Assembly (NCBI GenBank): GCA_963749705.1
Contig: CAVVNQ010000008.1
Location: 192,001-256,000 of the forward strand
Length of the DNA: 64,000 nt
Direction: 5' to 3'
From: an uncultured Chloroflexia bacterium
GTDB lineage: Bacteria > Chloroflexota > Limnocylindria > Limnocylindrales > CSP1-4
Each line of letters opens with the position of its first letter. The first letter of the stretch is position 1. Positions 4,498 to 62,890 of the stretch are shown here, one piece after another. Both the position numbers and the translations under genes were made by a program. The notes beneath the pieces are model-generated. The model did not search any database, was not told the origin of the DNA, and worked only from the letters and a program-made list of their open reading frames with translations.

Positions 4498-5057
4498 CGA
4501 GAAGGCGTCCTCATCTCGCGCGAGCGGTCACGCCATCGCATTGGCCTGAATGGCGCGACCCTTCGCCGGACCTGGCGCCGTCCGAGTGGGCACTCCCGAG
4601 ACGACCTCTGCCGGTTTCCAGCGCAGTGTACCAGCGGCCCGCAACGTATCGGCGGCATTACATTCCCGCTGACGCCCGCGGGAGCTCCCGTTCCGTCGGC
4701 CGCCGCGGCTCGCGTTCCGTGCCCGGCTCGAGCTCCGGTTCCGTCGCCCACCGCCACGCGCGGTGCTAGAGGCCCAGGGGCGCCTATCTGCTGTCAGGCA
4801 CCGCGGTGACCGGTGCTAGACCGACCCGGCGTTGATCGGAGCCGCATCGGCCGACTTTCGCGTGCGTGACCGACAGCTGGCGCGTGGCAAAAGGGTGGCA
4901 GGAACCAGGACAACACCACGCTCGGCGGTATGTGGCAGAAAGTGCGGACGGGCGACAGTCCGGCGGGCGAACCGGGCGCGAGGGTACGGCCGGGCGAAAC
5001 GGTACGGCCGGCTGGCGACGCCCGGGCCGGCGACGGTCCGGCGTTCAGGTCACGACC

Positions 5058-50940: not shown

Positions 50941-52485
50941 GTGACCCAGACGAGAACCCCCGCAACCCCAGTCATCGATAACGAAGCAGAGCTCGCGGCA
51001 GCGGCCGTCGCGCTCGATCCCGAGCTGCTCGAGCTCGAGGCCGAGGTGCTCGACTCCGAGGTCGTGGCGACCAAGCCCGAAGCTGCGGCCACCAAGCCCG
51101 CCGCGGACGAGGAGGCCGAGCCCGAGCCGGTCGCGGCCGAGGTGCTCGACACCGACGACTCGGTGCGCCTGTACCTGCGCGAGATCGGTCGCGTGCCGCT
51201 GCTCACCGCGGAGGAGGAGGTCATCCTCGCCAAGGGCATGGAGCTCGGCGCGCAGATCGACGCGGAGCCATGGAAGGCGATCCTGGCCATCCACGAATGG
51301 ACGCTGCACGGGACCGAGCCGACGGGCCGCCGCAAGGACCGCCGGTACTTCCTGCCCTTCGAGGCCGAGGCGCACCGCATCGTGCAGGCTGCCCTCAGCT
51401 CGGACGACGCGATGGACCTGCTGGTCACGGCACCGTCCTTCGACCTGCCCGACGCGCTCAAGAAGGCCGAGACGGACTCCCTCAGGGAGCGCCTCGTGCG
51501 CGCCCAGGACCTCCGCTCGGTCTACAACGAGCGCCTCGACCCCGAGTCCTTCCTCGACCTCCTCAACTGGATCGAGGGTGAGCTCGGCCGTCCGAACGTC
51601 GAGCTCCGCGCGAGCGCGGCGCTGCATGCCGTGCGCAACTGGTCTCGCGACGAGGTCGCCTACCCGGCGATCCGCCGCTACCTCGAGGCGGGCCTCGACG
51701 AGGACACCGTCGCCGAGATGGTCCTGACCCTCAAGGCGCTCGCGAAGCAGTCGCGCGACCACCTGACGTCGGCCAACCTGCGGCTGGTCGTGTCGATCGC
51801 CCGCAAGTACATCAACCAGGCCGGCATGGGTCTCCTGGACCTCGTCCAGGAGGGCAACGCGGGCCTGATCCGCGCCGTCGACAAGTTCGAGTACGAGCGC
51901 GGGTTCAAGTTCTCGACGTACGCGACGTGGTGGATCCGCCAGGCCATCCAGCGCGGCCTCGCGGACCAGTCGCGGACGATCCGCATCCCGGTGCACATGG
52001 TCGAGACCATGGGCCGGGTCGCGCGGGTGGTGCGCGAGCTCTCGACCCAGCTGGGCCGCGAGCCCACCAACACCGAGATCGCGGCGGCGCTTCCCGACGA
52101 GACGCCGGCGATGACGCCGACCCGCGTCGAGGAGATCCGCAAGCTCGGGCGCGAGCCCGTGTCGCTCCAGTCGCCGGTCGGCGACGAGGGCGATGCCGAG
52201 CTGGGCGAGCTCATCCCCGACGAGGACGCCGTGTCCCCGCTCGATGTCGTGTCCGACCGGATGCGCCGCGAGCAGATCGAGCACGTGCTCAACAGCCTCG
52301 ACGGCCGCGAGCAGCGCGTCCTCCGCCTCCGCTTCGGCCTCGACGACGGGCACGCCCGGACGCTCGAGGAGGTCGGCCGCGAGTTCGGCCTGACCCGCGA
52401 ACGGATCCGCCAGATCGAGGTCCAGGCGCTGCGCAAGCTGCGCCACCCGTCCCGAAGCCGCAAGCTGCGCGAGTTCGCCGCGTAG
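50941..52485 (+). CDS. RpoD/SigA-like sigma-70 factor
   Basis: [50 protein letters not shown] and TRERIRQIE. Confidence 0.95.
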
Positions 52486-52647: not shown

Positions 52648-53244
52648 CTACTCGCGGGCGCGCACTCCGAGCTCCCGCCCGACCCGCATCCAGATCAGGA
52701 CACCTGCGACGAGGAGGGTTGCTCCGACGACGTACCCCGAGTAGTGGAATGACGCGGTCCGACCTGCGGCAACGGCGATGGCGAACGGCCCCAGCCCGGC
52801 GATCACCGCGACCGCGGCATAGATCCGGGTCCGGTGCATCCAGACATAGGGCAGGAAGTGCCCGCCGTTGGTGGCGGCAAACGTGGCCGGGACGAGCAGC
52901 GGTTCGAGGTTGTACACGATGATCGAGGCCGGCAGCGCGATGGCCTGGACCATCGCCACCTGGACCACGAGGGGCGTGAAGGGGTTCGTGCTCGTCAGTC
53001 GTCGATAACCGAGGGCGTTCTCGAGCAGGAGCGAGCCGGGGAATGCCACGACTCCCTGGAACAGGAACACGAGCGCCGCGCCGGTGACCGACAGCACCTG
53101 GCTGAGGATCGCGGCCGCGATCCAGGTCAGCCCGTGGACGATGAGGAAGGCAAAGCCACCGCGGTTCGAGAATCGGATCTCGTCGCGCGCCTCATCGAGG
53201 GTCCGCGGACTCCCGCTGGGCAGTCGGTTCGTCGCTGCGGTCAT
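52648..53244 (-). CDS. Multi-pass membrane hypothetical protein
   Basis: About six TM segments and a GGHFLPY motif. GGAGG RBS. Confidence 0.75.
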   Translation of the reverse strand: MTAATNRLPSGSPRTLDEARDEIRFSNRGGFAFLIVHGLTWIAAAILSQVLSVTGAALVFLFQGVVAFPGSLLLENALGYRRLTSTNPFTPLVVQVAMVQAIALPASIIVYNLEPLLVPATFAATNGGHFLPYVWMHRTRIYAAVAVIAGLGPFAIAVAAGRTASFHYSGYVVGATLLVAGVLIWMRVGRELGVRARE

Positions 53245-53427
53245 CGCATCCTCCCATCCTCGCGGGCTCCCCGGCGCGGCCCACGGCGGTTGCAGGGATG
53301 GTGTCCGGGGCGGCCCTGTCCTGCTGGGTCAGGACCAACGCGCAGCGGCCGACACGGCGAACGACCATGCGACGCCGGGCCATCCTACCAATCGGCCGCC
53401 AACGCGACCACGCGAACGCCGCGTGGT

Positions 53428-55515
53428 CTACCCGGACACGGCGTCCGCGCAGTCGTAGACCGAGCTCGCGGAGCCGTCGATCGTGACCGCGGTGCAAGCG
53501 GACGCGACCCAGCTCGAGATGGTCGACGATGAGGCACCGCCGGGCGCTCCCCCACCACCGCCGACGGCGACGAACCGAAGCTCGCCGTTGGCGATCAGGG
53601 ACTGGAGCTGCTCCAGCGTCGGGGCGTCGTCGGCGCCATTGAAGCCGCCCATCGCCATCACCGGCCTGCCGGTTTCGATCTCGACCTGACCGGCCCAGGT
53701 CCCGCCCGAGACCGCGACGATCCAGGTGGCGGACCCCTGATTGGCGACCAGGTAGTCGATGACGCCGCTGCTCAGCCCGACGACCGGTCCTGCGGCCGCA
53801 CCGCCCGTACCGCCCGCTCCGCCCGCTCCGAAGGCGATCCCACCCTGCGCATCCCGGACGGAACCCGGCGGCGTGCCCCGCGTTCCGTCGATTGCCGCCG
53901 GCGGCTGGCCGGGCGTCCCGTTCGCGAGCGGTCCGCCGAGGCCGGCCGGCGCTCCGGCGCCGCCGAGACCCCGATCGGTGCCGGCGGCCTGCGGTCCCGC
54001 CGAAGGATCGCCACCGGAATAGGCGGTGGCCATCGTGTCGACGGCGTAGGCGGCCGGCCCGGCGAGGAGGACCGCCACGCCCAGGACGGCTGCCGCCAGC
54101 TGGACGCGTGCGCGGCCGGATCGAGGCCGCAGTGCGAGCGCCGGCAGCACGATCGCCGCGACGGCAACCACCGCCAGCCCGAGCCCCGGTGCGAACGACG
54201 GGGTCCGGTCGAGCAGCATCCACGCGATGACGGCCGACCCGAGGATCGACAGGCCGAGCACGGCGCCGGCCCAGGCGAACCGCGCGCGAGCGCGCCACAG
54301 CTCGACCACGCCGCCGCCCACGAGGGCCCCGACCGCCGGCGCCATGACCACGACGTAGTAGCTGTGGATGATCCCGGACATGAAGCTGAACACGACGATG
54401 TGGACGAGCAGCCACAGGCCCCACATCAGCCACGCGGCGCGAGCCAGGTCGGTTCGCGGGCCGCGGATCCGCGCGATGAGCCCGCTCACCAGTCCCACCA
54501 GGGACAGCGGCAGGAGCCACGCGATCTGCCCGCCGAGCTCGGCGTTGAACAGCCGCAGGATGCCGGGCGTGCCCGAGAACCCGCCACCAGCCGCTCCGGC
54601 TCCACCACCCGGCGGACCGCCTCCCCCGGCGACGGCCGCGCCGCCACCACCCTGGCCGAAGATCCGGCCCAGGCCGTCGTAGCCGAGCACCAGGTCGAGC
54701 GCGGAGTTGTCGGTGCTGCCGCCGATGTAGGGCCGCGATGCCGCGGGGATCAGCTCGATCGCGGCCACCCACCAGGCGCTGCTCGCGATCACGGCCACGG
54801 CCGCGACGGTGAGGCCGGCGACCCGACGGCGGATCGATCCCGGAGCCGCGATCGCCCACGTGATCGCGAACGCCGGCAGGACGAGGTAGCCCTGGAGCAG
54901 CTTTGTCTCGAACGCGAGCCCGATCAGGACGCCGGCCAGCGCGACCCACCGCAGCCGGTCGGTCTCGAGCGCCCGGATGAACGCGTATGCGGCGCCCACG
55001 AACAGGAGCGTCAGCAGCGCGTCCGGGTTGTTGTAGCGGAAGATCAGGACCGCGGCCGGGGTGAGCGCCATCACCAGCCCCGCGATGATCGAGGCGGCCG
55101 CGCCGAACGTGCGGCGAACGGTGGCCATCAGCAGGGCCACGGTCGCGACGCCCATCAGCGCCTCGGGCAGCAGGATCGATGCCGGGCTCAGCCCGAACAG
55201 CCGCACGGACAAGCCCATGACCATCGTCGCCAGCGGCGGCTTGTCAAGGGTGATGAAGTTGGCGGGGTCGATGGAGCCGAAGAACCACGCCGACCAGCTC
55301 TGCGAGGCCGCCCACGCGGCCCCCGAGTAGTAGACGTTGGCGTAGCCGCTCACGGTCAGGTTGACGACGTACAGCAGCGTCGCGGCCAGCAGCACGCCGG
55401 CGGTCGCCGGGAGCACCCACGCGGCATCCCGGGAACGGCTGCGTGCGATGTCGCGAACGGTGGCCAGGCGGCCTGCCGGGCGGGGTTCGACCCTGGGCGG
55501 TGCGATCGAGGTCAT
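53428..55515 (-). CDS. GT-C fold (ArnT/PMT-like, GT39/83) glycosyltransferase
   Basis: ANVYYS, TLDKPPL, RYNNPD, PYIGGS, GYDGLGR, HSYY and PVMAMGGF, with Gly-rich loops. Confidence 0.9.
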   Translation of the reverse strand: MTSIAPPRVEPRPAGRLATVRDIARSRSRDAAWVLPATAGVLLAATLLYVVNLTVSGYANVYYSGAAWAASQSWSAWFFGSIDPANFITLDKPPLATMVMGLSVRLFGLSPASILLPEALMGVATVALLMATVRRTFGAAASIIAGLVMALTPAAVLIFRYNNPDALLTLLFVGAAYAFIRALETDRLRWVALAGVLIGLAFETKLLQGYLVLPAFAITWAIAAPGSIRRRVAGLTVAAVAVIASSAWWVAAIELIPAASRPYIGGSTDNSALDLVLGYDGLGRIFGQGGGGAAVAGGGGPPGGGAGAAGGGFSGTPGILRLFNAELGGQIAWLLPLSLVGLVSGLIARIRGPRTDLARAAWLMWGLWLLVHIVVFSFMSGIIHSYYVVVMAPAVGALVGGGVVELWRARARFAWAGAVLGLSILGSAVIAWMLLDRTPSFAPGLGLAVVAVAAIVLPALALRPRSGRARVQLAAAVLGVAVLLAGPAAYAVDTMATAYSGGDPSAGPQAAGTDRGLGGAGAPAGLGGPLANGTPGQPPAAIDGTRGTPPGSVRDAQGGIAFGAGGAGGTGGAAAGPVVGLSSGVIDYLVANQGSATWIVAVSGGTWAGQVEIETGRPVMAMGGFNGADDAPTLEQLQSLIANGELRFVAVGGGGGAPGGASSSTISSWVASACTAVTIDGSASSVYDCADAVSG

Positions 55516-55538
55516 GGCCGGCTCCGGGATGGCGGTCG

Positions 55539-55862
55539 TCAGGAGCCGCCGGTGGACACGTGCCCCGATCCGCGCGTACGGGTCGGCGCCTGGAAGCCGT
55601 TGTTGCCCTGGAACGGCTGGAACCCGTCGTTCTGCTGGTCGTCGAAGGGCACCACCTCCTGCCGGGGCGCGACGGTCGTGCCCCGGCCACTGGTGGAGCT
55701 CCCGGCCGGCTGCTGATCCGAGGCGCCGCGGTACCCGCCGGCGGCGGCGAAGCCGAACCCCACGGTGGCGGCGATCCCGGTGACGGCGATCCCGGTGGTG
55801 AGCGTCCGGAGTCGGGTCAGCGCGTCGTACCGACGGCGCGCGGAATGTCGAAAGGCGTCCAT
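55539..55862 (-). CDS. Small anchored protein ending in HVSTGGS (copy 2)
   Basis: Arg-rich N-terminus, one hydrophobic helix, a flexible linker and C-terminal GHVSTGGS*. Confidence 0.75.
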   Translation of the reverse strand: MDAFRHSARRRYDALTRLRTLTTGIAVTGIAATVGFGFAAAGGYRGASDQQPAGSSTSGRGTTVAPRQEVVPFDDQQNDGFQPFQGNNGFQAPTRTRGSGHVSTGGS

Positions 55863-55885
55863 GCCCCCAAGTCTCGGGCGTGGAT

Positions 55886-55903
55886 CCTTTCGGTCCGGTT
55901 ACG
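55886..55903 (-). promoter_or_regulatory. OmpR-type box, copy A
   Basis: CGTAACCGGACCGAAAGG on the minus strand, 23 nt upstream of ATG 55862. Identical to 60109-60126. Confidence 0.65.
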
Positions 55904-55992
55904 GTCGTCGCCGGACGAGGCGCTCCCGCAGCCTGTCGGGACGGCGCAGGCGAAGGGTTGCACGGGATGCACGGGATGATCCCGCTTCGCCA

Positions 55993-57234
55993 TCAGCCGA
56001 ACGAGGCGCGGCTCCAGCTCACGGCGAACCGCGCGCCGCCGGTGGGTGACGACTCGACCGACCACCGACCGCCGGTCGCCCGCACGATCGCATCGCCGAT
56101 CGCCAGGCCCAGGCCCGCGCCGTCGGCACCCGTCGCGGTCGCCAGCGCACGATGGAACCGGTCGAACACCCGCTGGCGATCCTCGGGCGGGATGCCGGGC
56201 CCCGAATCATCGACCGTGAGCATCGCCCGCGCGCCATCGAGCGCGACCGTGACATCGACGCGACCGCCCTCCGGCGCGTACTTGCACGCATTGTCGAGGA
56301 GCACGCCGACGAGGCGGTCGATCAGGTCGGGCGCGGCCGCGATGACGGCGCCTGCCGGCGGCACGTGGACGCCCAGCTCGAGCCGGCGCGCCTCGGCCAC
56401 CGCGGCGAAGCGGTCCGTGGCCTGGGTTGCGATCACGCCCAGGTCGACGGGCTCCGAGGCCGGCGTCGCGTGCTCGGCATCGAACCTGGCCAGCCACAGC
56501 ATGTCCTCGAGCAGCCGGCGCATCCGCTTGGACTCGCGGTCCACGCGCGTGAACGCCGTCTGGTACCAGGCCGCGTCACGTGGCTGTGTCAGCGCGAGCG
56601 ACGTGTGCGCCTCGATCACCGACAGCGGCGTCCGGAGCTCGTGCGAGGCGTCGGCGGTGAACTCCAGCTGGCGCCGGCGGGCCGCCTCGATCGGCTCGGC
56701 GACGCGGCGCCCGATGAGCACCGCGCCCAGGAACACGGCGGCGAACAGCAGCGGCGCGATCAGCAGCTCGCCCAGGATGATCGTCCGCTGGGCATCGGAC
56801 ACGAGGTCCATCGCCTGCGCCACCACCACGTAGTCGTCGCCGATCGAGGCACCGGCGACGCGGACCTGGGTCCCGTCGATCGTCGCCGTGGTCGGGCCCA
56901 CGACCGCTCGGAGGTCCGTCGGGAGGTCGGGCGTCGAGGCGCTGGCGAGCACCGTCCCGTTCGATTCGACGGTCCAGACGAGCAGCGGCACCCCGAGCGG
57001 GCGCCCGGGGTCGCGGCCCGGATCGTACGGCGAGTCCGGCGGGCGGTTGGCGTCCGGAGGCAGGCGCCGGAAGGACTCCGTGAGCCGCTGGTCGATCTGG
57101 GATGTCAGGTCGCGCGTGGCGAACGCGACCACGCCGGCCGCGACGACCAGGTACGCGACGGCAACGATCGCGGTGGCGCTGAGCGCGACCCGGATCGACT
57201 GACGGCGGACTGCCGGCACGTGCGACATCGTCAT
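55993..57234 (-). CDS. Sensor histidine kinase
   Basis: Two TM segments, ADASHELRTPL, DNACKY, DSGPGI and GAGLGL. Confidence 0.95.
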   Translation of the reverse strand: MTMSHVPAVRRQSIRVALSATAIVAVAYLVVAAGVVAFATRDLTSQIDQRLTESFRRLPPDANRPPDSPYDPGRDPGRPLGVPLLVWTVESNGTVLASASTPDLPTDLRAVVGPTTATIDGTQVRVAGASIGDDYVVVAQAMDLVSDAQRTIILGELLIAPLLFAAVFLGAVLIGRRVAEPIEAARRRQLEFTADASHELRTPLSVIEAHTSLALTQPRDAAWYQTAFTRVDRESKRMRRLLEDMLWLARFDAEHATPASEPVDLGVIATQATDRFAAVAEARRLELGVHVPPAGAVIAAAPDLIDRLVGVLLDNACKYAPEGGRVDVTVALDGARAMLTVDDSGPGIPPEDRQRVFDRFHRALATATGADGAGLGLAIGDAIVRATGGRWSVESSPTGGARFAVSWSRASFG

Positions 57235-57899
57235 CCGGCGTCCAGCCGGTACCCCGCCCCGCGCACGGTCACGATTCGCAGCCCCGCGTCCGACAGCTTG
57301 GCGCGCAGCCGGCTCATCTGGACGTCGATCGCGTTGGACCCGAGCGGCTCGGTCTCGTCGGCCCAGGCGTGCTCGGCGATCGCCTTGCGATCGACGACGG
57401 CGGGCGCACGCCGCAGCAGGAGCTCGAGGATCCGGTATTCGGTGCTGGTCAGGGCTCGCTCCCGGCCATCCACGGTCACGACGCGGGTGACGGGATCGAG
57501 GCTCAGGCGGCCGGCCCCGAGGACGGGTGCATCGACCCCGCGCGGCCGTCGCTGGAGGGCGCGGACGCGCGCCAGCAGCTCCCCGAAGTCGAAGGGCTTG
57601 ACGAGGTAGTCGTCGGCGCCGGTGTCGAGGCCACGGATCCGGTCTGCCGGCGTGTCCCGGGCGGTGAGCATGATGATCGCGGTCGGGCGCTGCTTCCGCC
57701 GGGCCCAGGCAACGACATCGATGCCCTCGGCACCGGGCATCCGCCAGTCGACGACCGCGACGTCGTAGTCGTACCAGCCCAGGTAGTCGATCGCGTCATC
57801 GCCGCGTCCGACCGCGTCCACGTGGTATCCGGCGTCGGACAGGCCGAGCACGAGCACATCGCGCAGCCCCTCGTCGTCCTCCGCCACCAGCACGCGCAC
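57231..57899 (-). CDS. OmpR/PhoB-family response regulator
   Basis: VAEDD, VDWRMP, LTARD, GADDYLVKPF and TVRGAGY. Confidence 0.95.
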   Translation of the reverse strand: MRVLVAEDDEGLRDVLVLGLSDAGYHVDAVGRGDDAIDYLGWYDYDVAVVDWRMPGAEGIDVVAWARRKQRPTAIIMLTARDTPADRIRGLDTGADDYLVKPFDFGELLARVRALQRRPRGVDAPVLGAGRLSLDPVTRVVTVDGRERALTSTEYRILELLLRRAPAVVDRKAIAEHAWADETEPLGSNAIDVQMSRLRAKLSDAGLRIVTVRGAGYRLDAG

Positions 57900-57924
57900 C
57901 CGATCACCCTCCCAGCCTTCGTGC

Positions 57925-58194
57925 CTACCCGCCGCCTGCCGGGCCTCGGCCGGCGCGTGCAATGGTGGCACGGGCGGGGGCGACGAGACGGAGCGCCAGG
58001 ACGGGGCAGGTATCGACCGCCATCCGGGCATGCTCCATGAGGCTGGGTGGAACCGGGCCCGGACGCAGGATCGGATAGCCCCATTCGTCGAGCGCGATCA
58101 TCTCCGGGAGCAGCTCGGCACACGAGCCGTAGCCGTCGCACGCGATCCGGTCGACGGCGAGGGCGGGTTGGTCGGACGCGGCGAGCGTCGTCAC
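57925..58194 (-). CDS. Single-cluster ferredoxin
   Basis: CDGYGSC...CPVLAL. GTGA overlap with the upstream gene. Confidence 0.85.
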   Translation of the reverse strand: MTTLAASDQPALAVDRIACDGYGSCAELLPEMIALDEWGYPILRPGPVPPSLMEHARMAVDTCPVLALRLVAPARATIARAGRGPAGGG

Positions 58195-59432
58195 GCCGCC
58201 CTCCACGCCTGTCGACCGGCCACGCAGCCACGGCCGCGCTGGTGCGACGTGAAGTCCGTCTCGAACACGCGCAGCGCGCTCCGGAGCAGCCCGACCGCAC
58301 CGTCCGGGTGACGGCACGCGCCTCGCCCGGCGAGGGTGTCGGTCCAGCCGGCAAGCCGGCGCAGGTCATCGCCGTGGGGGCGTCCGGTGGCCAGCCGCGC
58401 CGTCGCGTCGGCGATCGCCCGGAGGCCGAACACGCACGGTCCGCACTGGGCCGCGCTCTCGCCCGCCATGTAGTCGAGGATCCGGGCTGACGCGCGCACC
58501 CCGCAATCGTCGTCGCCGAGGAACCACACGATGCCGCAGCCGAACGAGGCGCCGGTCGCGCGAAGCTCCGGCGGGTCGAGCGGCATCTGCCACGCGTCGC
58601 TGCCCGCCACCCAGCCGCCGAAGTACCCGCCCTGCAGGACCGGACCGCCGGTCAGCTGAAAGCCGGCGCGTCGGGCGACCTCCGCGAGCGTGGTCCCGAT
58701 CTCGATCTCGGTGACGCCGGGCAGCGGTGCGCCGCCGATCGTCACCAGCGCCGTGCCCCGGGTCCGGCCGCGACCGGCCTCGCGATACCAGCCGTCGCCG
58801 AACCGGGCGATCAGCGCGGCGTGGGCCAGGCTCTCGACGTTCTGGACGAGCGTCGGCAGCCCGTCGATCCCGCGCTCGAACGGTCGCGGGGGCGTCGTGG
58901 TGGGTCGGGCGTCGCCCTCGTTGATGAAGTGGACGGCCGCCGACTCCTCGCCCGAGATGTAGGTCGGGGGCGCCGCGACGAGCTCGATCGGGAGGCGTGA
59001 GCGGATCCGCGAGACGTCCGCCATGCGCTCGTCGAGCGCGCGGCGCAGCGCCTTGCGCGCCGCGACGTGCTCCGACCCGACGTACAGCACGACCCGGTCG
59101 GCCCCGACGACGCGGGCCGCGAGCTCGGCGCCATCGAGCACGAGGTGCGGCCGGGTGCTCATCAGGAGACGATCCTTGGAGCTCAGCGGCTCACCCTCGG
59201 CGCCGTTGGCCAGGACGACCGCGCCGCCGGTGGCTCGATCGCGCACCGAGCCCCACTTGCGCGCCACCGGGAAGCCGGCACCGCCGCGACCGAGCAGGCC
59301 GGCCGCATCGAGCATGGCCACGGCATCGAGCCCGTCCTCGGGTCCCGGCAGGCGGCCGAGGCGCAGCGTGTGGTCCGCGAGCGACTCGGGACCGGCGGCC
59401 AGCGGCGGCCCGGCGAGCAGTCGGGCGGTCAT
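58191..59432 (-). CDS. Stand-alone NuoF-like NADH-binding FMN/Fe-S protein
   Basis: GLLGRGGAGFP, NGAEGEP...KD, YISGEESA, QNVESLA, ESAAQCGPC..G and GACRHPDG. Confidence 0.9.
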   Translation of the reverse strand: MTARLLAGPPLAAGPESLADHTLRLGRLPGPEDGLDAVAMLDAAGLLGRGGAGFPVARKWGSVRDRATGGAVVLANGAEGEPLSSKDRLLMSTRPHLVLDGAELAARVVGADRVVLYVGSEHVAARKALRRALDERMADVSRIRSRLPIELVAAPPTYISGEESAAVHFINEGDARPTTTPPRPFERGIDGLPTLVQNVESLAHAALIARFGDGWYREAGRGRTRGTALVTIGGAPLPGVTEIEIGTTLAEVARRAGFQLTGGPVLQGGYFGGWVAGSDAWQMPLDPPELRATGASFGCGIVWFLGDDDCGVRASARILDYMAGESAAQCGPCVFGLRAIADATARLATGRPHGDDLRRLAGWTDTLAGRGACRHPDGAVGLLRSALRVFETDFTSHQRGRGCVAGRQAWRAA

Positions 59433-60022
59433 CGGGCGCTCCGGTTCGAGGTCGACTGCCACGACGAGCTCGCGACCACGTCGGCCAGGCGGGCGCGGGG
59501 CGGCTCGATGGCCACCCGCCAGGCGAGGCTGCCCGCGACCGCCGCGAGGCAGGCCAGGTCGATCGCCAGCATCCACGGCGCCGATGCGTCGCTGCCCGCG
59601 GTGAACCCGTGGAGCAGGGCGAGCGGCCACATCGCGTAGCTGGTCCAGTGGATCGCCCGCCACGTCCCCTGGCCGATGTGCTTGCGCAGCAGGCTGGTGA
59701 CGATCAGGGCGACGAACAGGTACATCGCGATGACCCCGAGGGCCACCGGGACCGGCCGGTACGTCGACGCGAGCGGGACCAGCGCCGCACCGATGCCGAG
59801 GCTCGTGAACGGGTCGAACACCGCCGTGAGGATGTGAACCGCGAGGAACACGATCGACAGCAGCGACACCCGCCGGTGCATCTCGTAGTTGAAGAACCGC
59901 GGCCAGCCGGCGGCCTGGAACCGGACGACGGTCACGAGGCCCAGGCAGGTCGCCGCCGTGAACATCAGCAGCGACACGGCGCCGGCGCCTCGCGTCGCGA
60001 ACCACAGGACCTGGTCGAACAT
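59429..60022 (-). CDS. Ferric-reductase-like (MsrQ-like) transmembrane cytochrome b
   Basis: About five TM segments with His pairs HRR...VH and WRAIH...LH. Confidence 0.85.
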   Translation of the reverse strand: MFDQVLWFATRGAGAVSLLMFTAATCLGLVTVVRFQAAGWPRFFNYEMHRRVSLLSIVFLAVHILTAVFDPFTSLGIGAALVPLASTYRPVPVALGVIAMYLFVALIVTSLLRKHIGQGTWRAIHWTSYAMWPLALLHGFTAGSDASAPWMLAIDLACLAAVAGSLAWRVAIEPPRARLADVVASSSWQSTSNRSAR

Positions 60023-60108
60023 CTGGCTATCGCTCCGGGGAGGGGCGCGGGACCGGGGGGGTCGGTCCCGCGCCGGGAAAGATCACGCGAACAGTGTCCC
60101 GGCCGGCA

Positions 60109-60126
60109 CCTTTCGGTCCGGTTACG
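60109..60126 (-). promoter_or_regulatory. OmpR-type box, copy B
   Basis: CGTAACCGGACCGAAAGG overlapping the apbE TAA stop. Confidence 0.65.
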
Positions 60127-61201
60127 ACGCGGGCGAGCCCTCACGATCCGCCGAAATCGTCGTCGCCTCGCCGTCCGTGGCGGTTGGCGCCGGCACGCCA
60201 TCCAGATCCGGTGCCGGCCAGCCGCCGAGGCGGACCACCCGCCCATCGTTGCCGACCAGCCGTGCCGGGAGGCCGGCGGCGTCCAGCCATCCCGGCGCGT
60301 CATGGCCCAGCACGATCGCGGCGGTCGAAGCGCCATTGGCCAGCTCGCACGTCGTCGCGACCACGGTGGCGGTCCGCCACGGGGTGACCGCGGCGAGGCC
60401 CGTCCGTGGGTCGACGATGTGGTGGACGGTCACGCCATCTGCCGACGTCCAGTGCCGGACCGTCGTGCTCGAGGTGGCGATGGCGCCGCCCTGGATCGCG
60501 ACGACCTCACCGTCGCCGTCCGACGGGGCACGGCTGTCCTCGGCCACGAGGACCCGCCAGCCACTTTCGGGTGCCCTGCCCGCGGCCGTCATATCGCCGC
60601 CGAGGCTGACCAGGACGCCGGCATCGGGACCGACAACCTGCAGCGCGGCGTCTGCAGCCAGGTCGGCGGCCAGGCCCTTGCCCGTGGCACCGAGATCGAG
60701 CTCCACGCCGCCGGGCACGCGCAGCTCCCTGGACCGCCGATCGAACGAGATCGCGGACCAGCCCGGGACGGGCGCGACGCGCAGCTCGAGCGAGCGGCTG
60801 GAGCCGGCGAGCTGGTCGAAGTCGAGGTCGTAGCCGATGACCCGCATCGCCCGGCCGACCGTGGGGTCGACCGCGCCGTTCGAGCGGCGGGCGGCCTCGA
60901 TCGCGCCGGCCAGCGCGCGCGCCAGCAGCGGGCTCACCCGGATCGTGCGGCCGGCGGCGGCGTTTGCCGCCATCAGCTCACTGTCAGCGCGGAACCGGCT
61001 GTACGCGCGATCGACGTCGCCCAGCACCTGCTCGACCGCCACCTGCGCCGCGGCGAGGTCGCCGTCGAGCACCAGCAGGCGGACGCCCGTGCCCAGCGCC
61101 CGCCAGTCTGCCTGTTCGATCACGCCCGGGTCGCGTCGGTCGGCCGAATGGATCGTCGCGCCGCCGCTCACGAGGTGGCGCGTGGGCCCCGCCGCGCTCA
61201 T
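60122..61201 (-). CDS. apbE: FAD:protein FMN transferase
   Basis: ALGT, SRFRADSEL, VDPTVG, DLGATGKG, SLGGD, ATS and HHIVDPRTG. Confidence 0.92.
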   Translation of the reverse strand: MSAAGPTRHLVSGGATIHSADRRDPGVIEQADWRALGTGVRLLVLDGDLAAAQVAVEQVLGDVDRAYSRFRADSELMAANAAAGRTIRVSPLLARALAGAIEAARRSNGAVDPTVGRAMRVIGYDLDFDQLAGSSRSLELRVAPVPGWSAISFDRRSRELRVPGGVELDLGATGKGLAADLAADAALQVVGPDAGVLVSLGGDMTAAGRAPESGWRVLVAEDSRAPSDGDGEVVAIQGGAIATSSTTVRHWTSADGVTVHHIVDPRTGLAAVTPWRTATVVATTCELANGASTAAIVLGHDAPGWLDAAGLPARLVGNDGRVVRLGGWPAPDLDGVPAPTATDGEATTISADREGSPAS

Positions 61202-61503
61202 GAGCCGCCCGTGGAGACGTGCGCCTGGCCGGTGGTGCTGGCCACTGTCGGTGCCGCGGTCGCTGCGGCGGTCGATGTCGAGCTCGATGTCCCGCTCGTG
61301 GCCGGCGTCGCACCGTCGACGGTCTCCGTGGTGACGGCGGCCGTGAGGGCTGACTGGGTCAGCGCGCCGTTGTACGTGAGCGCCGACGCCCAGCCGAGCC
61401 CGCCGGTCGCGGCGACACCGAGGATGGCGGTCACGATGGTCATCCTGCGGAGGCGGCGGTTGGCGCGGGACCGAGCCTCGGCGCGCTGGTCATTCGTGTT
61501 CAT
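61198..61503 (-). CDS. Small anchored Ser/Thr-rich protein ending in HVSTGGS (copy 1)
   Basis: NRRLRRMT, a hydrophobic helix, an S/T/A linker and AHVSTGGS*. ATGA overlap with apbE. Confidence 0.8.
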   Translation of the reverse strand: MNTNDQRAEARSRANRRLRRMTIVTAILGVAATGGLGWASALTYNGALTQSALTAAVTTETVDGATPATSGTSSSTSTAAATAAPTVASTTGQAHVSTGGS

Positions 61504-61525
61504 GGCCCGATGTTGCCCGGACCCA

Positions 61526-61543
61526 CCTTTCAACTCCGTGACG
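61526..61543 (-). promoter_or_regulatory. OmpR-type box, copy C
   Basis: CGTCACGGAGTTGAAAGG, 22 nt upstream of ATG 61503. Confidence 0.6.
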
Positions 61544-61942
61544 GCTCGTGGCAACTCGTGGCCGTGGGGACGGTAACCGGGCCCCGAATCGCGCTCCGCC
61601 CCTGTTCCGATTCGCGCTCTGCCCCTGTTCCGCGGGTCCGAATCGTGCCCCGCCCCTGACAGTTGCCCGCCCTGCGAGCACTGGCCAGCGAGCCGGGTCC
61701 GACAGCGCCACGAGCTCGCCCAACTGCCCCGTTTCGCCTGCCACGTGTCCAACCGATGGGCACGTGGCGTGCCTTCAGCCGCGTCGGCAGCGCCGAGGCC
61801 GTCCCCGACCAGGGGCGCGGTGGCGAACGCCCGCATGACGGGCAAATGGCATGGGCGCGCGGGGCGGTTGGCCGGTTGGCCGGTTGGCCGCCGAGGTGCG
61901 CCGTGTCGTTCGTGTTCATGCCCCGGTCATCGGGGCGGAAAT

Positions 61943-61958
61943 CCTTCGATCCGGTGAC
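61943..61958 (-). promoter_or_regulatory. OmpR-type box, copy D
   Basis: GTCACCGGATCGAAGG, 23 nt upstream of ATG 61919. Confidence 0.5.
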
Positions 61959-62890
61959 TACTCGTCGGGCTTCACGTCGTCCAGCGAATCGGCGGTCTCG
62001 ACGGTTCCGTCGACACCCGGCGGTGCGACTGGCGGGGGTGCGCCTCCGCCGCCGGCCGCCGGGTCGGGGCTCCCGCCGGCCGGCGTCGTGTCCGGGCTGC
62101 CCGTCGCCGGCGTCGTGTCCGCATCCCCGGGATCCTCGTCGCGAGAGGCGTCGGGCACGGTCGGCACGACCTCCTGAGGTGTCCTGACCGGCGCTCGCGC
62201 CGCGAGGGCGGCGGCCGCCCCCGTTCCGAGGTTCTTCGAGCCGAAGTAGAAGCCTGCCACCGCAACGACGAGCGTGCTCACCGTGGTCAGCAGCTGGAGC
62301 GCGAAGTCATGGCCCTCGGCGGACATCCGCTGGCGGATCCGGACGGTGTACAGGGGTTCGGCCGGCGTGGCACCCGGTCCGGTCGCCGGCATCAGGTCCT
62401 GCTCGAGCACGTTGCCACCGCCGGCGCGGATCGAATCGATCTGGGTCTGGGTGAGCCCTTCGGACGTGTACACGTCCCCCGACGTCGAGGACTGGAGCAC
62501 CACCACCCCGATGATCGCGAAGATCAGGATGAGGACCATCGCGATGAGCGCCCGGATCGACCCGGGCGGCATCCCGAGCGCCTCCCCCGGCGTCGGCATC
62601 CCGAGGGCCGTCATGACCACCGTTCCCGTGTACAGGATGAGCGTGACGGTCACGAACCCTGCGATGAGCAGGACCACGCTGTCCAGCTTGATCGCCCACG
62701 CTGCGACGTTGGGCAGGGCGGCGAACATGAGCGCCAGGACGATGAACGCCCCGAACACGAGCACCGCCGCCCCCAGGGTCCCAAGCCGGCCCCACGGCGA
62801 GGCCCGGTCACCGGTTGGCGCGTCGCCCGATCCTGGATTCGCTCTGCCGCCCTGTCCCTCGTCGTCCTCGGTCGTCCGATCCTGCGTCAT
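61958..62890 (-). CDS. Membrane hypothetical protein
   Basis: Four TM segments, ALGMPPGSIRA and AVAGFYFGS, with an acidic Pro-rich tail. Confidence 0.75.
   Translation of the reverse strand: MTQDRTTEDDEGQGGRANPGSGDAPTGDRASPWGRLGTLGAAVLVFGAFIVLALMFAALPNVAAWAIKLDSVVLLIAGFVTVTLILYTGTVVMTALGMPTPGEALGMPPGSIRALIAMVLILIFAIIGVVVLQSSTSGDVYTSEGLTQTQIDSIRAGGGNVLEQDLMPATGPGATPAEPLYTVRIRQRMSAEGHDFALQLLTTVSTLVVAVAGFYFGSKNLGTGAAAALAARAPVRTPQEVVPTVPDASRDEDPGDADTTPATGSPDTTPAGGSPDPAAGGGGAPPPVAPPGVDGTVETADSLDDVKPDE

Follow-up and report, generated by a model that had tools for sequence, protein, structure and literature searches.

The window analysed here is a 64,000-nucleotide stretch of a soil Chloroflexota genome (GenBank assembly GCA_963749705.1, contig CAVVNQ010000008.1, positions 192,001 to 256,000), and our subject is a block of nine genes that lie head to tail on its minus strand at 53428-61503, where the G+C content is 72-74% (Table 1). 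The genes encode two small proteins with the same C-terminal HVSTGGS (small1 and small2), an ApbE-family flavin transferase, a ferric-reductase-like (Fre-like) membrane cytochrome b, a stand-alone NuoF-like flavoprotein, a ferredoxin, a response regulator (RR), a histidine kinase (HK) and a GT-C glycosyltransferase. The original prediction had described nine co-oriented genes of these families, several with ATGA or GTGA overlaps, and all were found in place. ATGA stop/start overlaps join small1 to ApbE, the Fre-like gene to the NuoF-like gene and the regulator to the kinase, and a GTGA overlap joins the NuoF-like gene to the ferredoxin gene; the overlap of small1 and ApbE suggests co-translation. 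We consider it fairly likely that the nine genes form a single regulon under its own regulator, and that this regulon serves membrane electron transfer with flavin-tail small proteins. The operon's probable role is to take electrons from NADH and deliver them, through the membrane, to membrane proteins that are small and unfolded.

Table 1. Genes and sequence features of the operon, in window coordinates
Feature	Position	Strand	Description
small1	61198..61503	-	101 aa, C-terminal HVSTGGS; candidate ApbE substrate and cytochrome b subunit; no Pfam/NCBIfam family
ApbE-family FAD:protein FMN transferase	60122..61201	-	359 aa, PF02424 169 bits, without signal peptide
Ferric-reductase-like (MsrQ-like, Fre-like) membrane cytochrome b	59429..60022	-	197 aa, PF01794 31.1 bits (cut-off 28)
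Stand-alone NuoF-like flavoprotein	58191..59432	-	413 aa, PF01512 and PF10589, GRGGAGFP, SAAQCGPC
Single-cluster ferredoxin	57925..58194	-	89 aa, Fer4_15, GTG start overlapping the NuoF-like stop
OmpR/PhoB-family response regulator	57231..57899	-	222 aa from GTG 57899
Membrane histidine kinase	55993..57234	-	413 aa, HisKA and HATPase_c, extracytoplasmic loop of ~110 aa
small2	55539..55862	-	107 aa, small1 paralogue, same architecture and HVSTGGS end; E 2.7e-26 to family profile
GT-C glycosyltransferase	53428..55515	-	695 aa, PMT_2 and YkcB_C, 23 nt after small2
Operator site 1	61527..61542	-	GTCACGGAGTTGAAAG, first base ~39 nt upstream of small1 ATG, then -10-like hexamer
Operator site 2	60110..60125	-	GTAACCGGACCGAAAG, contains ApbE stop codon, ~100 nt upstream of Fre-like start
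Operator site 3	55887..55902	-	GTAACCGGACCGAAAG, then GAGACT; first base 40 nt upstream of small2 ATG
GC-rich hairpin	60044..60074	-	12-bp stem, presumed 5' leader of Fre-like gene

Neither small protein matches any Pfam or NCBIfam family, even at E ≤ 1. The two share an Arg-rich N-terminus, one hydrophobic helix, a linker rich in Ser, Thr, Ala and Pro, and the identical end. The coding pattern for HVSTGGS followed by a stop occurs twice in the window (0.00 expected) and twice in the entire 3.6-Mb assembly, both times at this operon. A word-indexed search returned 26 clusters of relatives, all unnamed or 'hypothetical' apart from an evidently wrong VasK label on one, and none with a Pfam domain. 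The alignment of small proteins conserves an N-terminal segment, R-x-R-A-x-R-R-L-R-x-[ML]-T, and a C-terminal A-H-[VA]-x-[ST]-G-G-S. A full hmmsearch with a broader alignment (A4) then gave 662 representatives at E ≤ 1e-3, 163 of them also at E ≤ 1e-10; no longer, fused form of small1 was present among 6062 candidates, which is weak evidence. The small proteins are thus a real, unannotated family.

Tail statistics were taken from the best 150 of the 662 representatives. A [ST]G[GSA][ST] core lies at most four residues from the C-terminus in 138 of them and is exactly terminal in 104; the 12 without a tail appear to be truncated or over-extended gene calls. Among the 138 tails the core is TGGS in 88, SGGS in 37, TGSS in 5, TGAS in 5, SGAS in 2 and TGGT in 1. 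The HVSTGGS tail named in the original prediction stands for both window proteins, but the motif conserved in the family is the shorter [ST]-G-G-S near the C-terminus. Topology was assessed for the 122 of these 150 that have the tail and are no longer than 135 aa. Their median length is 108 aa, the helix begins at residue 23, and the median linker is 56 aa long, Ser plus Thr making up 43.5% of it. Net charge falls from +4 ahead of the helix to 0 behind it, and the N-terminal side is the more positive in all 122. An RR pair precedes the helix in 62 of the 122 and an AxA follows it in 63. The genome has a TatC gene, and we leave the Tat-signal reading of the N-terminus as equivocal.

The minimal motif recognized by ApbE has seven residues, D-x-x-[S/T]-G-A-[S/T], and FMN is attached to the last of them (PMC12052999, JBC 2025 review). 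As a tag the motif is most effective at the N or C terminus; Asp-to-Ala replacement has minor effects only, Gly-to-Ala or Ala-to-Val each halved flavinylation in a model protein, and Ser is less well accepted than Thr (PMC12052999). Set against this motif position for position, H-V-S-T-G-G-S agrees at positions 4, 5 and 7, and the family consensus end is x-x-x-[ST]-G-G-S. The acceptor Ser would be the last residue of both window proteins (S101, invariant in alignments A1 and A4), G99 at position 5 is likewise invariant, and position 4 is Thr or Ser in all 138 motif-bearing representatives. Position 6 is Gly in 126 of the 138 tails, Ser in 5 and Ala in 7, the last being the canonical GA form; position 1, six residues before the last Ser, is His in 85, Gln in 29, Val in 12, another residue in 12 and Asp in 0. 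The assembly, which is 88% complete, has no match to FMN_bind (PF04205) and three ApbE genes. From the motif, the gene coupling and the lack of an FMN_bind protein in the genome, we infer that the tail resembles a natural flavin-attachment tag for ApbE.

The ApbE gene and the PF01794 gene of the cytochrome are adjacent; the MsrQ-like cluster criterion places the two within five genes. In the Fre-like protein, His49, His63, His125 and His138 are invariant in 30 sequences, including two paralogues at 26-31% identity. The His residues are spaced 14 and 13 residues apart, the spacing found in the two haem-binding helices of NOX-type ferric-reductase domains (NOX2). With a PF01794 match above cut-off and four conserved His, the protein is a predicted di-haem ferric-reductase-domain cytochrome b. 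By inspection, its Arg/Lys-rich loops (34-51 and 113-125) and its C-terminus would be cytoplasmic, which would mean that His49 and His125 hold the inner haem and His63 and His138 the outer one.

Complex prediction took as input the Fre-like protein (alignment A3), two haems, FMN and small1 (alignment A1). The pair scored 0.88 in three of three runs, and the best of three controls scored 0.00. In the benchmark, 116 of 157 solved complexes score this high, as do 2 of 215 mismatched pairs; these counts apply only approximately to models made with custom alignments and with ligands included. Between runs 81% or more of the contacts are shared, and the partner has a pLDDT of 66 or higher; the confident interface sets small1 14-45 against Fre-like residues 4-23, 41-62 and 144-151. 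In the model the basic N-terminal segment of small1 lies at the Fre-like cytoplasmic loop and the end of its helix at the outer face. The modelling thus supports a role for the small protein as a subunit of the cytochrome b, with its tail predicted to lie on the outer-haem side (His63/His138).

The NuoF-like protein scores 197.5 bits against the NuoF equivalog TIGR01959, below the cut-off of 558.65, and aligns end to end with NuoF and HydB chains (E = 1e-44 to HydB of an iron hydrogenase). The GRGGAGFP flavin/NADH loop is retained. At the N3 cluster motif, Ala replaces the first Cys (S-A-x-Q-C-G-P-C) in each of the 28 clade sequences long enough to include this motif; that of locus L078 stops short of it. 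Also conserved in the clade are G-R-G-A-C-[RHK]-[HLM]-P-D-G (H-P-D-G in 21 of 28) and a Cys near the C-terminus, and the gene is always followed by one for a Fer4_15 ferredoxin. The genome's two other NuoF homologues (33-37% identity) lie on another contig, each adjoining a NuoE-type gene (PF01257). A concern attached to the original prediction was that the protein might group with canonical complex I or hydrogenase subunits whose partners lie elsewhere. Judged by its clade, its own Cys signature and its constant ferredoxin partner, it is instead a distinct stand-alone form and not a stray complex I or hydrogenase subunit, and the NuoE genes of the genome lie beside the other NuoFs. It would work as a NuoF-type NAD(P)H dehydrogenase module. 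An ATGAS in this protein was considered as an alternative flavinylation site and rejected, its Ser not being conserved in orthologues.

NuoF-like orthologues at 55% identity or more occur in 13 of 24 other genomes of the genus and in none of 16 genomes of a second genus. Three of the 14 genus loci have the order small-ApbE-Fre-NuoF-Fdx-RR-HK (Fdx, ferredoxin) and one has small-Fre-NuoF-Fdx; in the other 10 the NuoF-like and ferredoxin genes stand alone, in other contexts. These lone pairs (L036 and L038-L046, from genomes G001-G024 of the same genus) are 54-59% identical to the pair of the window, lack ApbE, Fre-like and small genes, and have varied metabolic genes as neighbours. The NuoF-like and Fer4_15 pair looks like a portable NAD(P)H:ferredoxin module.

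How widely is the arrangement kept? A scan for the Fre-like protein, with one genome per species, gave 35 loci, all in Chloroflexota metagenome-assembled genomes (MAGs), and with the window these make 36; the nearest relatives with a name are MAGs that carry the label Chloroflexia or Candidatus Limnocylindrales. A tail gene lies directly upstream of the Fre-like gene in 32 of the 36 on a strict definition, and in 34 if the variant tails ...HAAVSTGGS and ...QATTGGS are admitted. An adjacent ApbE gene is present in 27 loci, a NuoF-like gene in 25, a ferredoxin gene in 23, the regulator in 23, the kinase in 22, a second small gene in 13, GtrA in 14 and GT-C in 16; several loci run into a contig end, so that absences may be missed genes and these counts are lower bounds. 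The five genomes checked among those whose locus lacks ApbE all have an ApbE gene elsewhere, with a Pfam score of 171-175 bits compared with 169.6 bits here. The GT-C gene, whose matches to PF13231 (98.8 bits) and PF24878 (91.5 bits) are both above cut-off, is present in 16 of 23 loci with a two-component system (TCS) and in none of 13 without. GT-C and the second small protein are optional modules.

In an even sample of the phylum, the small-protein profile matches 18 of 401 genomes, in five families. Eleven of 12 loci from other families or classes keep the small gene, ApbE and the Fre-like gene, and 10 also have the NuoF-like and ferredoxin genes. Synteny, proposed with the original prediction as a check, is thus conserved across several Chloroflexota classes with gene order shuffled, as in HK-small-ApbE-Fre-NuoF-Fdx and small-Fre-NuoF-Fdx-ApbE-RR-HK. 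Tails in these other families and classes include GHATTGGSR, TVTSGGS and VAVSGGS. In the Fre-like tree one clade (96/93) is made up of the loci without NuoF-like genes and another (100/100) of those without a regulator, L080 excepted; the branching of the full loci at the base is unresolved, and long branches lead to two distant paralogues and L080. Some genomes contain a pair of loci (L064-L075), one a regulated small-ApbE-Fre-RR-HK-GtrA-GT-C without a NuoF-like gene and the other a small-Fre-NuoF-Fdx without ApbE or regulator. The two Fre-like paralogues of these pairs fall in separate supported clades, as if one ancestral operon had split in two. At five loci (L050, which is the same as L037, L056, L062, L081 and L083) the NuoF-like, ApbE, regulator, kinase or GT-C gene is in two or three frame-shifted pieces, which reflect either MAG assembly errors or real decay.

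The other two ApbE genes of this genome lie outside the window (G000:C3:257286-260068, L085, and G000:C8:315695-321341, L086). Each adjoins a Fre-like PF01794 gene and genes for small membrane-anchored proteins without a family, of which one ends in ...TSTTTGASGVP and one in ...TTRQSGTVR. Also present at L086 are a divergent RR-HK pair, a ferredoxin of the 2x[4Fe-4S] type and an FNR-like NAD(P)H reductase; here the same logic is built from non-homologous parts.

The regulator (receiver and winged helix) and the kinase (HisKA and HATPase) have the domains of an OmpR/PhoB-type two-component system; their best NCBIfam matches are to RppA and to CopR/heavy-metal types, all below cut-off. GTG 57899 was chosen as the regulator start for the GGGAGGG 8 nt upstream of it. 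A shared operator had been predicted, and the sequence common to the regions upstream of small1 and small2 resolved to GTNAC-N6-GAAAG(G), with three operon-strand copies, upstream of small1, the Fre-like gene and small2. The window holds four matches to GTNAC-N6-GAAAG (0.05 expected), the fourth being unrelated, at 4855. The whole genome holds seven, about the seven expected by chance, and three of the seven are in this operon; the four others (for example C3:383599, upstream of a gene for a secreted protein) were considered as operators and rejected, their number being near that of chance.

The regions of the 36 loci contain 49 exact sites on the operon strand and none on the opposite strand. 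At least one exact site occurs in 22 of the 23 loci with the two-component system, and in all 23 if one mismatch is allowed; among the 13 loci without the system, 12 have no site and one has a site. With one mismatch allowed, 65 of 66 sites fall in three positions: 21 upstream of small1, 22 upstream of the Fre-like gene (by ~100-120 nt) and 22 upstream of small2 or gtrA. The consensus is CGTaAC-n6-GAAAGG-n9-10-GAsACT-n6-7-ATG, and the distance from site start to ATG is 39-40 nt for 14 of the 21 small1 sites and 20 of the 22 downstream sites. A -10-like hexamer that ends 6-7 bases before the ATG suggests that the transcripts would be leaderless, with the predicted activator site in place of a -35 element. 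This comparative evidence argues that the operator joins the regulator, both small genes and the GT-C module in one regulon. The fuller regulon of the original prediction is upheld to the extent that the operator spans these genes; small2, found in 13 of 36 loci, and GT-C, found in 16 of them, are optional members. Two other readings of the shared sequence were rejected by eye: the three window copies lack a consistent common stem that an RNA hairpin would have, and GAAAGG, if a Shine-Dalgarno sequence, would be separated by 23 nt from the ATG of small2, for which there is no other start codon in frame.

The two 5-nt half-sites of GTNAC-N6-GAAAG, with 11-nt periodicity, are like those of the actinomycete GlnR box, gTnAc-n6-GaAAc, an OmpR-family direct repeat. 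Unlike GlnR, the regulator here has a kinase partner, and its predicted targets are redox and glycosylation genes, not nitrogen genes. The GlnR string itself occurs in PMC3561978, PMC10704036 and PMC3087709.

Between the operator and -10-like element of the Fre-like gene and its start codon lies a GC-rich hairpin that is kept in 15 loci, with compensatory changes that alter both sides at 5 of 9 predicted pairs. It has no U-tract, and the region 53000-62500 has no Rfam match at E ≤ 1. The hairpin may serve as an attenuator in the leader, as a stabiliser or to terminate a small1-apbE transcript. Farther upstream, ~416 nt from the small1 promoter region, is a degenerate second copy of that region (61919-61958, minus strand). 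It consists of an operator-like GTCAC-CGGATC-GAAGG, one base short, then ATG AAC ACG AAC GAC, the same first five codons as small1 (MNTND), after which it diverges into a GGCCAACC x3 repeat. The copy is absent from the two nearest relatives and is probably the relic of a partial duplication. The neighbours of the operon are unrelated to it: a DUF7010 protein, the principal sigma factor, an AlkZ-like glycosylase and one protein without a family. The convergent sigma-70 gene (51046-52485, plus strand) lies just downstream of the operon, with the DUF7010 membrane protein gene (52648-53244) between, and is a synteny anchor kept in 12 related loci.

The core of the operon (small protein, ApbE, Fre-like, NuoF-like and ferredoxin genes) belongs to the "MsrQ-like, NuoF-like" clusters. 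Meheust et al. 2021 (eLife, PMC8238504) described 1797 MsrQ-like flavinylation-associated clusters, mostly in Actinobacteria, 31 of them with a NuoF-like protein, in agreement with the earlier statement that similar core operons exist there. As in those clusters, ApbE stands beside a PF01794 di-haem protein and a PF10589 NuoF-like protein, and the same NAD(P)H-driven transmembrane electron transfer is proposed. The published clusters 'typically include' an FMN_bind gene (PMC8238504); this genome lacks one, and the candidate acceptor is a domain-free protein of ~100 aa. The two-component system, the operator and GT-C are likewise absent from that description, in the part of it available. For a cluster to enter that analysis, ApbE or a known substrate had to carry a signal peptide or a lipidation site (PMC8238504), and loci like this one, whose ApbE has no signal peptide, may have been filtered out.

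Other relatives of the parts are known. The E. coli MsrPQ system and the NOX, FRE and STEAP proteins have two b-haems, held by four His on two helices, for transmembrane electron transfer. The Fre-like protein resembles them in its four His on two helices and two predicted b-haems; unlike MsrPQ and NOX, the operon has no MsrP partner or fused FAD/NAD domain, and input would come from the separate NuoF-like protein and ferredoxin. The Listeria FmnB/PplA/Ndh2/EetAB system shares with the one proposed here a monoderm-type envelope, ApbE-dependent covalent flavin and electron export, and differs in its extracytosolic ApbE-like enzyme, folded FMN_bind acceptor, quinone route and ECF FAD exporter (PMC8238504, PMC9973259). 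In the engineered Flavin-tag (Tong et al. 2021, cited in PMC12052999; PMC9400968), a terminal seven-residue motif suffices for FMN attachment, including by a signal-less ApbE in the E. coli cytoplasm. That tag is artificial, an NqrC-derived D-x-x-S-G-A-T, whereas here x-x-x-[ST]-G-G-S is the end of a natural protein family. Among the FMN_red and Flavodoxin_4 substrates reported by Huang et al. 2024 (bioRxiv 10.1101/2024.03.13.584918), some have the motif in a C-terminal extension that is disordered, like the candidate site here. In the FMN_red proteins the tail folds back onto their own flavodoxin-like pocket; the small proteins have no folded domain, and any pocket would have to come from a partner. 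A literature search that covered few subscription journals found no published natural C-terminal flavin-tag protein, domain-free small substrate or regulator-operator-GT-C regulon. New relative to what is in print are the domain-free candidate acceptor family, its predicted role as a cytochrome subunit, the signal-less ApbE, and the autoregulated regulon with its operator.

Taken together, these features suggest the following scheme. The stand-alone NuoF-like protein would oxidise NAD(P)H and pass electrons through the ferredoxin to the inner haem, as family knowledge suggests, and the five-helix, di-haem, ferric-reductase-like cytochrome b would carry them from the inner to the outer haem side. 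The small proteins would be bitopic cytochrome subunits; in the model the helix packs on helices 1 and 2 with the N-terminus inside, and a Ser/Thr-rich unstructured linker of ~55 residues would emerge at the outer-haem side. Co-translated ApbE would attach FMN to the last Ser of x-x-x-[ST]-G-G-S, most likely in the cytoplasm before the tail is exported, and the tethered flavin would then take electrons from the outer haem and hand them to an extracytoplasmic acceptor. The OmpR-type regulator would bind GTNAC-N6-GAAAG, by the comparative evidence, at the -35 position of three promoters (small1-apbE; fre-nuoF-fdx-RR-HK; small2 or gtrA-GT-C), of which at least two look leaderless. GT-C, with GtrA where present, would be a co-regulated optional output that may glycosylate the Ser/Thr-rich tethers or another envelope target, the weakest step. 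A flavinylation-based electron-transfer system, as originally proposed, remains the best-supported reading, with every biochemical step resting on inference. A more specific version of it is tentative at best: a 'flavin on a leash', in which a domain-free cytochrome subunit of ~100 aa, its tether possibly O-glycosylated, would be flavinylated on its last Ser by a cytoplasmic ApbE, then threaded or Tat-exported, and would carry electrons from the outer haem to distant acceptors under its own two-component system, GTNAC-N6-GAAAG operator and leaderless promoters.

So, are the tails flavinylated, and does the whole work as proposed? The location of ApbE is hard to square with simple flavinylation outside the membrane, a point that the original prediction did not consider. 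A signal peptide would not fit in the gene: counting upstream from the conserved ...ADWRALGTG... domain start, an in-frame stop is reached after 1-19 codons in 8 of 26 loci, and on inspection the N-terminus has no hydrophobic stretch. An ApbE without an export signal and a tail outside mean that modification would have to precede export, and an unstructured terminal tag is the type of substrate for which this is conceivable. Several observations nevertheless weigh against the proposed scheme. ApbE lacks a signal peptide and yet its presumed target, the tail, is predicted outside; we know of no precedent for export of a pre-flavinylated tail, and the Tat-like RR and AxA features are found in only about half of the family. 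Both window proteins have Gly instead of the canonical Ala at position 6 and His instead of Asp at position 1, and the tail itself is placed without confidence in the complex model. In the NuoF-like protein the first Cys of the canonical N3 motif is missing, which makes its cofactor content uncertain. The organism is uncultured, and no RNA data set was found for the stretch; the eight runs listed for it are of DNA and account for small shares only. GT-C and small2 are missing from most loci, and modules also occur apart, as NuoF-like and ferredoxin genes alone, loci without ApbE and loci without NuoF-like genes. Gly at position 6 is not among the variants described in the available part of the motif review, and the same review notes that cytosolic ApbEs exist (PMC12052999).

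Some of these points would fit small proteins that are only structural or assembly subunits and never flavinylated, their GGS serving protease or kinase recognition and ApbE modifying another protein or trafficking flavin. Such a reading gains from the two of seven motif positions at which the tail departs from the canonical form, from the predicted placement of ApbE inside and the tail outside, and from the 9 of 36 loci that have the small and Fre-like genes without an adjacent ApbE. We nonetheless hold it to be unlikely. Against it, 138 of 150 distant members have retained [ST]-G-[GSA]-[ST] as their end, seven of them in the canonical GA form; the stop/start overlap points to co-translation with ApbE, the genome lacks FMN_bind, its other two ApbE genes have analogous small partners, and the only [ST]GA[ST] match in the NuoF-like protein is not conserved. 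The conflict over location would disappear if the C-terminus were inside and flavinylated there, as an entry flavin between the ferredoxin and the inner haem comparable to the FAD of NOX and Fre enzymes. NOX-type enzymes do have their flavin on the cytoplasmic face, and an ApbE without an export signal and the lack of an FAD exporter among the operon proteins agree with this arrangement. The positive-inside rule runs opposite to it in 122 of 122 family members, the model sets the basic N-terminal segment at the positive Fre-like loops and the helix end at the Fre-like N-terminus and the 144-151 loop, and the Ser/Thr-rich linkers and co-regulated GT-C fit a location outside. A cytoplasmic tail is accordingly improbable.

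Two further alternatives concern the operon as a whole. The redox chain could be mainly a sensor input in which the tethered flavin, especially that of small2, whose gene comes directly after that of the kinase, reports the external or membrane redox state to the kinase, with envelope remodelling by GtrA and GT-C as the output. A small gene follows the kinase gene in several gene orders, GT-C is confined to loci with the two-component system (16 of 23, none of 13), and the operator precedes gtrA or small2. We give this little credence, in that 13 of 36 loci carry the redox genes without a nearby regulator and 7 of 23 regulator loci have no GT-C. A chance juxtaposition of independent modules (ApbE-Fre, NuoF-like-ferredoxin and a TCS-GT-C envelope cassette) with no common function appears the least probable of all. 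One operator stands upstream of genes from every module and comes and goes with the regulator, other classes have the combination too, in different gene orders, and L086 repeats the logic with non-homologous parts. Each module is nonetheless found alone somewhere, the NuoF-like and ferredoxin pair elsewhere in 10 of 14 genus loci, and loci without NuoF-like genes, or without ApbE or regulator, do exist.

If the electron route proposed here is correct, soil Chloroflexota would gain an NAD(P)H-fed extracytosolic electron route with a tethered, mobile flavin, together with a new class of ApbE substrate and a route for covalent flavin to the outside of the cell without FAD export. Given an ApbE without a signal peptide, one may ask how covalent flavin gets outside the cell. 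With a regulator of its own and a well-defined operator, the system offers a way to its signal, and through the signal to its physiological acceptor. Should the tail be flavinylated, ApbE substrates would include proteins without a flavin-binding fold, a natural counterpart of the Flavin-tag, and some genomes with 'orphan' ApbE genes would be explained.

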